Positions 38,037-41,148 of a DNA stretch of 64,000 nt are shown here, one piece after another. The notes under the pieces were generated by a model. That model made no database searches. It worked only from the letters and a program-made list of their open reading frames with translations, and had not been told where the DNA came from. Source of the stretch: Escherichia coli (GTDB taxonomy: Bacteria > Pseudomonadota > Gammaproteobacteria > Enterobacterales > Enterobacteriaceae); NCBI RefSeq assembly GCF_044324875.1, contig NZ_CP172185.1; one strand, given 5' to 3'. Position 1 is the first letter of the stretch. Each line of letters begins with the position of its first letter. Position numbers and translations under genes: made by a program.

Positions 38037-38286
38037 AACTGATAAAAAAACCCCTCTGAAAATTCTGTCAGAGGGGGGCAAGGATCTATATTTATTATGC
38101 GGTAATGCTTTCACTCCGGTAATTAATTTCAGTGATTAACTGCTTTCGATCAATAAAGGAATTGCAAAAAGGTGATCTTGTTCACGACATTGTGGATGAT
38201 AATATGCCTGATGTCTGAATCCGGAAACAGTGCTCTGGCGGGTTTCATGGTAAGCGTACAGCGAGGGCCGTATTGACGGGGATGTG

Positions 38287-39825
38287 TTATTCAGCTGGCA
38301 GTGCTATGCGCCACGGAAGCAGTTCGCTGACCCGGTTGACCGGCCAGTCTGCTATGACGCCAAGCACATGGCGAAGGTAGCTTTCTGGATCCACGTCATT
38401 CAGTTTGCACGTCCCTATCAGGCTGTACAGTAGCGCTCCCCGCTCACCACCATGGCCAGAGCCGAAGAACAGGAAGTTTTTACGACCCAGACTTACCGCC
38501 CGCAGGGCATTTTCAGCGATGTTGTTGTCGATTTCCACCCAGCCATCGTTCGCATAGTACGTCAGTGCCGGCCACTGGTTAAGTGCGTACGCGAACGCCT
38601 TCGCCAACTCTGAGTGTCGCGACAGGGTCTTCATCTTTTCACGCAACCAGCTTTCCAGGGATTTCAACAGCGGTTTCGTTTTTCGCTGACGTTCAGCAAG
38701 CCGCTGCTCTGCCGGCATTCCCCTTATATCCGCCTCTATGGCGTACAACTGACCGATCTGCTCCAGGGCTTCTTCCGTCAGTGCTGACGGGATGCGGACG
38801 TGCACATCGTGGATCTTTCGGCGGGCATGAGCCCAGCAGGCAGCTTCCGTTATCCCACCATTGCGATACAGCTCGTTGAACCCGGCGTACGCATCCGCTT
38901 GCAGCACACCGCTGAAGCAAGCAAGATGAGTCTGCGGATGGATGCCTTTTCTGTCCGGGCTGTAAGCGAACCACACTGCAGGTGCCAACGCTGACCCGGC
39001 ATTGCGGTCATCACGAACATACGCCCACAACCGCCCGGTCTTCGTCTTCTTATTACCCGGCATCAGTACCTGGACCGGGGTATCATCGGCATGGAGTTTG
39101 CCGTCAGTCATGACATAGCCATGAAGCGCCTCTTCCAGCGGAGACAGCAGCCGGCAGCATGCATCCACCCAGCCCGACAGCAGTGAACGGCTCAGCTCCA
39201 CACCTTGCCGGCCGTATATTTCTGACTGGCGATACAGCGGGGTGTGCTCTGCATACTTCGAGGTCAGCACGCGGGCCAGCAGCCCCGGTCCGGCGATACC
39301 CCGCTCGATGGGCCGCGAAGGTGCAGGTGCCTGCACGATGGCATCGCACTGAGTACAGGCATGTTTTTCCCGTACCGTCCGGATAACCCGGAAGGCGCTA
39401 CGCATCAACTCCAGCTGTTCGGCGGTATCCTCGCCCAGATAGCTCAGTGAACCGCCGCAGTTCGGGCAGCACGGCGCCGCAGGCAACAGTCGCTTTTCGT
39501 CACGGGGTAGTGATTCAGGGAACGGCTTACGGATGCGGGTCTGACGCAACGGACGCTGTACTGCCGGGTCATACACCCTACCAGTCAGCGTATCGCTCTC
39601 TTTCTGAAGCTGGTTCAGATCGGCTTCCATTTGTGCGATACGGCGGGAGACTTTTTCGGAACGACTGCCGAAGTTCATCCGGCGGAGTTTATCCAGCTGC
39701 GCCTGCAGATGGTCTATTTCGCGCTCCCGGTTGCTCAGCTTTTCCTGCAGGGCGTGGATCAGCGCTTCCTGTTCGGCCAGGCGCTGTTTCAGCAGGAAGA
39801 TGTCGTCAGAAGAGATGTCGTTCAT
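38287..39825 (-). CDS. IS66-family transposase TnpC
   Basis: 512 aa with N-terminal coiled coil, Cys cluster CCPNCGG...CTQCD and DDE-type core. Confidence 0.9.
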
Positions 39826-39874
39826 AAGCCCGTATTTTACCGGGCTTATTCTGTGACAACCAGGATAAAGAGAT

Positions 39875-40222
39875 TTACAGCATGGTCAGGGAGGTCAGCA
39901 GCCGCTTAGGCTGTCGCCAGTCGATACCTTCCAGCAGCATCGCCAGCTGCGCCTGTGTAAGGAACACTTTGCCATCACGGGCTGACGGCCAGGCGAAGCG
40001 CCCACGCTCCAGCCGTTTGGTCAGGAGGCACAGTCCGTCACCGGTGGACCACAGCAGTTTAACCTGACTGCCGCTGCGGCCCCGGAAAATGAAAACATGG
40101 CCGGACATGGGATCGTCTTTCAGCGCCGTCTGTACTTTCGCAGCCAGGCCGTTGAAGCCATTTCTCATATCGGTGATACCGGCAACCAGCCAAATTTTGG
40201 TCCCGGAAGGTAAAGGGATCAT
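39875..40222 (-). CDS. IS66-family TnpB
   Basis: 115 aa, [31 protein letters not shown] typical of IS66 Orf2. Confidence 0.85.
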
Positions 40223-40620
40223 CGCTTCAGTTCCTGTATCAGCAGAGTCAGGAGCTTTTCGCTGACATTGCCATTGAAGCGGAGCGTCCCGTGCCGGAAC
40301 GTTACCTCACAGCTGATACTGAGGGTTTCCGGGTCCTCTGCGAGCGATTCTGGCTGTTCGGCAGCTGCATCGAGAGTCACAGGAAGTAGCTGGGGGCTCT
40401 CTGAAGAAGGTAATAGCAGCTTTCCCTCGCGCCATTGTTGTCGCCATTTGAACAACAGATTGGCGTTAATGCCATTTTCAAGAGCAAGTTTTGAGATGGA
40501 TATCCCGGGTTCACAGGAGGCAGCAACGAGCTGCTGTTTAAATTCGGGAGGATAATTAGGGCAGCCTTTTCGCCTGCCGGGAGTCACATTTTTCTGCATA
40601 TCTGACACTTTGGTTCCCAC
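40219..40620 (-). CDS. IS66-family TnpA
   Basis: 133-aa ORF, first of the IS66 trio. Confidence 0.8.
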   Translation of the reverse strand: MGTKVSDMQKNVTPGRRKGCPNYPPEFKQQLVAASCEPGISISKLALENGINANLLFKWRQQWREGKLLLPSSESPQLLPVTLDAAAEQPESLAEDPETLSISCEVTFRHGTLRFNGNVSEKLLTLLIQELKR

Positions 40621-41148
40621 TACTTATTTGGTGGACACCACTTTGTCTAATTCGTCAGATTCTGACCAGACGGTTCAGGCTGTACGCTTACGTTTCATGT
40701 GAAGTTGACGGATAAAAAATCCGCACGACCAGACAGACGTGCGGTTTACGAAATTCGTAACAAGAGGCTTTTCTACGGATCACGTGGTGCGTGCCACGTG
40801 TACGTCTGCATTCCTCGTTTTGAACAGAATTCTCACCAGACATCGTGAATTTCTCATTCAATCATCAGAGATATTACCCAGGATTTTTATTGTTTTGTGA
40901 TATCAGCAGTGCAGGTATACAGACATTAAAGTAATCAGGTTTATTATAACCACCTTTACAAAGTTGTATGTGTTTATAATTTAAGGATTTTAATGCCAGT
41001 CGTTTTCTGCTGCTTAAATTGAGGTCGCATATTATACACAATAATATTCCTGACATTATTAAATTAATAAAAGAGGATTCTTATCACTGTATTTTTGCTC
41101 CGCACTACCGTTCTGGCTGGTGAAGTAATAATACAGGAGAATAACAGA

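Follow-up and report, generated by a model that had tools for sequence, protein, structure and literature searches.

In the stretch of Escherichia coli DNA analysed here (contig NZ_CP172185.1; 64,000 nucleotides, referred to as the window), a complete copy of the IS66-family insertion sequence ISEc8 lies near the end of a lambdoid prophage, in the spacer between a gene for a DUF4376 protein and a gene for a YadA-like trimeric autotransporter (Table 1). The first-pass annotation of the window had proposed an IS66-family insertion at 38242-40699; this range comprises the element plus both 8-bp target-site duplications. The element itself starts 213 bp past the DUF4376 gene, reckoned from element end to gene end. 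As set out below, we regard it as almost certain that this ISEc8 copy reached the prophage spacer by transposition.

Table 1. Features of the ISEc8 insertion and of the genes around it (positions in the window)
Feature	Position	Strand	Remarks
DUF4376 gene	37461-38036		directly upstream of the element; PHROGs 'tail fiber protein'
Left target-site duplication, GTTTCATG	38242-38249		8 bp, single at empty sites
ISEc8 (IS66 family), complete	38250-40691	-	2442 bp; nucleotide identity and IS66 models
Terminal inverted repeat IRR, GTAAGCGTACAGCGAGGGCCGT	38250-38271		tnpC-distal, right end of the element; 18/22 pair with the other end
tnpC, DDE transposase	38287-39825	-	512 amino acids; Pfam and NCBIfam
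tnpB, IS66 accessory protein (IS66 Orf2)	39875-40222	-	115 amino acids; Pfam and NCBIfam
tnpA, helix-turn-helix accessory protein	40219-40599	-	126 amino acids from the RefSeq ATG; Pfam and NCBIfam
Terminal inverted repeat IRL	40670-40691		tnpA-proximal, left end of the element; pairs with IRR
Right target-site duplication, GTTTCATG	40692-40699		8 bp, single at empty sites
YadA-like trimeric autotransporter gene	41149-42375	+	457 bp from the end of the element
Sigma70-region-4-like small gene	42437-42892		downstream of the autotransporter gene

The sequence identifies the element as ISEc8 itself and as more than a mere relative within the IS66 family, since the 2442 bp are 100% identical over their full length to the top matches, which are annotated in RefSeq as 'IS66-like element ISEc8 family transposase' together with tnpA and tnpB, and since eight ISEc8 copies that were compared together with their flanks have identical boundaries and only 0-1 differences from the element in the window (0 in the copies at loci L006 and L007). 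When 5,426 complete E. coli genomes were searched by megablast with the 2442-bp element, 6,681 records gave matches. Of these, 4,103 contain a place in which at least 80% of the query is covered, and the genomes that carry ISEc8 have a median of four places. A decayed remnant was considered as well and is ruled out by the 100% identity to intact copies.

The three proteins encoded by the element were compared with Pfam and NCBIfam models at curated cut-offs, and all of them score above the cut-offs for their IS66 roles. TnpC matches DDE_Tnp_IS66 (PF03050; E 9.4e-107) over profile positions 1-283 of 284 and the NCBIfam model transpos_IS66 (NF033517) with 457 bits at a cut-off of 180; moreover, it matches the leucine-zipper domain LZ_Tnp_IS66, the zinc-finger domain zf-IS66 and DDE_Tnp_IS66_C. 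TnpB is recognized by TnpB_IS66 (PF05717; E 1.2e-38) and by IS66_TnpB (NF033819; 120 bits, cut-off 50), and TnpA by HTH_Tnp_1 (PF01527) and by the model for IS66-like TnpA proteins (NF047595; 97.7 bits, cut-off 74). For tnpA, the open reading frame (ORF) called mechanically reaches further than the RefSeq start, to a GTG at 40620. The genes are arranged in the order tnpA-tnpB-tnpC on one strand as three intact ORFs: The ATG of tnpB overlaps the stop codon of tnpA (ATGA), and a gap of 49 nt follows before tnpC. Both the IS66-family assignment and the three intact ORFs of the first-pass annotation are therefore confirmed by the nucleotide identity and by the protein models; all three ORFs lie on the minus strand and have IS66-family domains. 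Because its ORFs and ends are intact and its sequence is identical to that of a multicopy element, this full-length copy is predicted to be functional.

IS66-family termini typically begin with GTAAGCG and carry inverted repeats of about 20-30 bp. In the copy studied here the inverted repeats are 22 nt long, and 18 of the 22 positions (82%) are complementary, with the outermost 13 nt, GTAAGCGTACAGC, pairing perfectly. Exact matches to this terminal 13-mer occur only twice in the 64-kb window, at the two ends of the element. The description of the inverted repeats as matching thus holds for their tips and not for their whole length.

The element is flanked on both sides by the same 8-bp sequence, GTTTCATG, and the match ends at exactly 8 bp, with a G preceding the left and a C preceding the right duplication. 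The perfect duplication reported in the first-pass annotation is thus present as described. At uniform base composition, sequences at two fixed positions would agree in 8 of 8 bases by chance with a probability of about 1.5e-5; this estimate is made unnecessary by a test of the empty site. For this, both flanks were joined with a single GTTTCATG, and the resulting query of 1201 nt was searched against the same complete E. coli genomes. It matched 372 genomes, and at least 80% of its length was covered in 18. In strain B771, the spacer runs gapless across the junction, and the alignment of B771, strain 135 and GPEC60-33-648 to the junctions in the window gives ...CTCTGGCGGGTTTCATGTGAAGTTGACGG... 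with one GTTTCATG at the position of the element. These three related loci are uninterrupted, which upholds the clean transposition that had been proposed before. The other ISEc8 copies behave in the same way: All eight, at seven distinct sites, are bordered by perfect 8-bp duplications of unrelated sequences. No obvious common sequence was detected among these eight duplications, a small sample in which a weak target preference is possible. Because of the 8-bp duplication and the uninterrupted empty site with its single GTTTCATG, we conclude that the insertion is the result of a simple transposition with an 8-bp staggered cut of the target.

The element has almost certainly entered, by transposition, the non-coding DNA that separates the last tail-fibre-associated gene of the lambdoid prophage from the YadA-like autotransporter gene. 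A mechanism can be drawn from what is known for the IS66 family. The DDE transposase TnpC would recognize the GTAAGCG... termini, aided by the helix-turn-helix protein TnpA and by TnpB. The target would be cut with a stagger of 8 bp, TnpC would link the ends of the element to it, and repair of the stagger would then yield the duplication. The characterized prototypes of the family are IS66 and IS679 (Machida et al. 1984; Han et al. 2001). They are other members of the family and have other lengths, whereas they share with ISEc8 the three ORFs, the ATGA overlap, the short gap, the GTAAGCG termini and the 8-bp duplications. For IS679 and IS66, this arrangement of three ORFs with the tnpA/tnpB ATGA overlap and the short gap before tnpC was reportedly set out by Han et al. 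2001 (J Bacteriol 183:4296). For IS66 itself, an 8-bp duplication has been reported (PMC6778807). The ISEc8 copies of E. coli O157:H7, of APEC O1 and of thousands of other genomes and plasmids agree with the copy in the window in the 2442 bp, the order tnpA-tnpB-tnpC, the termini and the 8-bp duplication, and the insertion site alone is different. The finding is ordinary, already known biology: A familiar insertion sequence is present in an identical copy at a site that is new and probably neutral. Its significance is very small: It is a reminder that the accessory-gene regions of prophages tolerate insertion sequences, and it has no bearing on the open questions of IS66 transposition or of autotransporter regulation.

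The left junction of the insertion is absent from all 5,426 complete E. coli genomes, the whole 6.9-kb neighbourhood reaches full coverage in no complete genome of this collection, and a search of a phage collection with the left flank gave no match. When exact matches to the protein of the neighbouring tail-fibre gene were looked up, they led to three NCBI draft assemblies, GCA_965266905.1, GCA_958430965.1 and GCA_958306635.1 (loci L014-L016), with prophage DNA that is 100%, 99.96% and 99.3% identical to the window, respectively. In all three, the left junction, GTTTCATG directly followed by GTAAGCGTACAGC..., is identical, and the contigs stop 127-144 nt inside the element, the usual break of short-read assemblies at a repeat. 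An exact-protein record was found neither for the 259-residue nor for the 277-residue form of the truncated autotransporter ORF, and the evidence from the drafts thus concerns the left junction only. Since three drafts that were assembled independently have this left junction as well, the insertion is real and no assembly artefact, and since it is shared by these drafts, it is either inherited within a small lineage or travelling with the prophage. With its junction in so few assemblies, the insertion can be used as a lineage marker.

A few points weigh against this interpretation. The name ISEc8 was assigned via the RefSeq annotation of identical DNA and not via an ISfinder entry, the inverted repeats are imperfect past their first 13 nt (as they are in the other copies), and the transposition activity of the copy in the window is a prediction from its sequence. 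Moreover, the empty site of B771 is spanned by a mechanically called minus-strand ORF of 91 amino acids with a TTG start, which the insertion would cut short; RefSeq does not annotate this ORF, and it lacks other support. The element interrupts no annotated gene, but because of this ORF the statement that no gene was disrupted is only probable.

Two other origins of the locus have to be weighed against direct transposition. ISEc8 is present in several copies in most E. coli genomes, and with so many places per carrier, homologous recombination between copies or the misassembly of a repeat could in principle have produced what we see. Yet recombination between copies normally leaves unlike flanks, as was observed for IS66 (PMC6778807), whereas here the same 8-bp sequence stands on both flanks and the element is joined seamlessly into a known empty site. 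In addition, the left junction is found in three independent assemblies. Taken together, this largely refutes recombination and misassembly, which we consider very improbable. Equally slight is the chance that the autotransporter module is moved by a larger mobile unit with IS66 boundaries (a composite or one-ended transposon), of which the element would form one end: In islands outside prophages this module indeed has a truncated transposase fragment as one neighbour and ISEc8 or ISCro1 as the other, but the window contains no second ISEc8 end, the two copies of the duplication stand directly at the ends of the single element, and both sides of the empty site are intact. From the position of the duplication and the intact empty site it follows that only the element itself moved here. 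For the same locus, a composite transposon in the strict sense was ruled out, as there is a single element in the window with the duplication directly at its ends. Direct transposition of ISEc8 thus remains the reading that we prefer.

What does the insertion do to its surroundings? Most likely, it is selectively neutral. It could alter the expression of the YadA-like gene, as the first-pass annotation had suggested, and of its sigma70-region-4-like neighbour, either by separating them from distal upstream DNA or from read-through of the tail operon, or by an outward promoter, but we judge this to be unlikely. Two observations speak for such an effect: The element divides an upstream region of about 740 bp (37957-38249 and 40700-41148) that accompanies the autotransporter module even outside prophages, and in strain 135 a second IS66-family element has entered the same spacer. 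On the other hand, the autotransporter gene has kept 449 bp of native upstream sequence, in which a promoter-like match lies at 40920-40947. Transcription of the transposase genes runs away from the autotransporter gene, and a hairpin (40721-40747) stands between this gene and the element. Finally, the in-frame TAA of the autotransporter gene described below probably makes its product non-functional at any level of transcription. Judged from these sequence features, it looks unlikely that an effect on the expression of the autotransporter gene would matter.

The hairpin at 40721-40747 has a counterpart at 38051-38076; the two stable hairpins bracket the insertion, and with the U-tracts that follow them on the minus strand they resemble intrinsic terminators. 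In related genomes, the stretch between the two hairpins contains no annotated minus-strand gene. When the occupied and the empty site were searched against Rfam, none of the families matched at its gathering score, with matches at chance level below it, and the searches thus give no support for a known small RNA at the target site.

A second IS66-family insertion at the corresponding place is found in strain 135 (locus L003, NZ_CP080260.1). An ISCro1-like element occupies positions 3894-6602 there and is bordered by the 8-bp duplication AAATAAGC. This element resembles ISEc8 in its location in the spacer between the DUF4376 and YadA-like genes, in its orientation, in the length of the duplication and in the GTAAGCG start, whereas it is longer (2709 bp) and encodes a larger TnpA of 225 amino acids; the spacer has a variant form there, and the element was inserted into it about 200 bp further downstream. 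The module of the YadA-like and sigma70-region-4-like genes also occurs outside prophages, at loci L002, L004 and L005, where the homology begins at about window position 37957. At these loci, the left neighbour is a truncated transposase helix-turn-helix fragment, and the right neighbour is ISEc8 or ISCro1 at L002 and L004. With two IS66-family members in the same spacer of unrelated strains and with ISEc8 or ISCro1 abutting the module outside prophages, it is tempting to speculate that the spacer is a preferred landing place for the IS66 family, or that such elements help in relocating the module between prophages and islands of the chromosome. We consider this improbable, and coincidence is the more economical reading because ISEc8 is so abundant in the genomes that carry it.

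The neighbouring genes can be described more precisely than before. The DUF4376 gene had been called a tail-fibre assembly gene; its product is listed in PHROGs as a 'tail fiber protein' and has no assembly-chaperone match in Pfam or NCBIfam, so that the assembly part of the label stems from the position of the gene only. In the tail fibre protein encoded upstream of it (36117-37445, plus strand), a phage_tail_N domain precedes collagen-like Gly-X-Y repeats that extend over about 230 residues. The autotransporter, which had been termed Eib-like, is a YadA-like trimeric protein: It has a signal peptide and a YadA_anchor domain (PF03895; E 2.4e-17), it matches the structure of the YadA anchor (2lme) with E 1.2e-17, and a match to YadA_stalk (PF05662) is weak and below the cut-off. 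The label Eib-like is tentative, as no Eib structure matched at E <= 1e-3 and no Eib-specific NCBIfam model was matched. One related locus (H32) is annotated as 'immunoglobulin-binding protein', and a literature search on eibG in connection with prophage and tail fibre returned nothing relevant. An in-frame TAA at 41926-41928 splits the reading frame of the autotransporter gene: The translation here is ...ETRT, stop, TDSS... as compared to the uninterrupted ...AYTDKS... of its relatives. The gene is thus probably a pseudogene, and its N-terminal part would be made without the membrane anchor. The sigma70-region-4-like gene downstream is followed by a DinI-like gene.

The window starts inside the prophage, which ends near 43.6 kb beside btsS/btsR and the yeh genes. 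The prophage part encodes, among others, a helicase, a primase, RusA, a lysozyme, the large terminase subunit, the tail tip protein J and the tail fibre. It also carries a porin gene (5710-6813, minus strand; Porin_1, E 2.7e-127), which lies between the replication and RusA genes and the lysis genes. For the chromosomal flank at 43600-51600 (btsS, btsR and yehM-yehQ), none of the 5,426 complete E. coli genomes exceeds an identity of 97.9%, with the best match in IAI39, and the source lineage is therefore poorly represented among those genomes.
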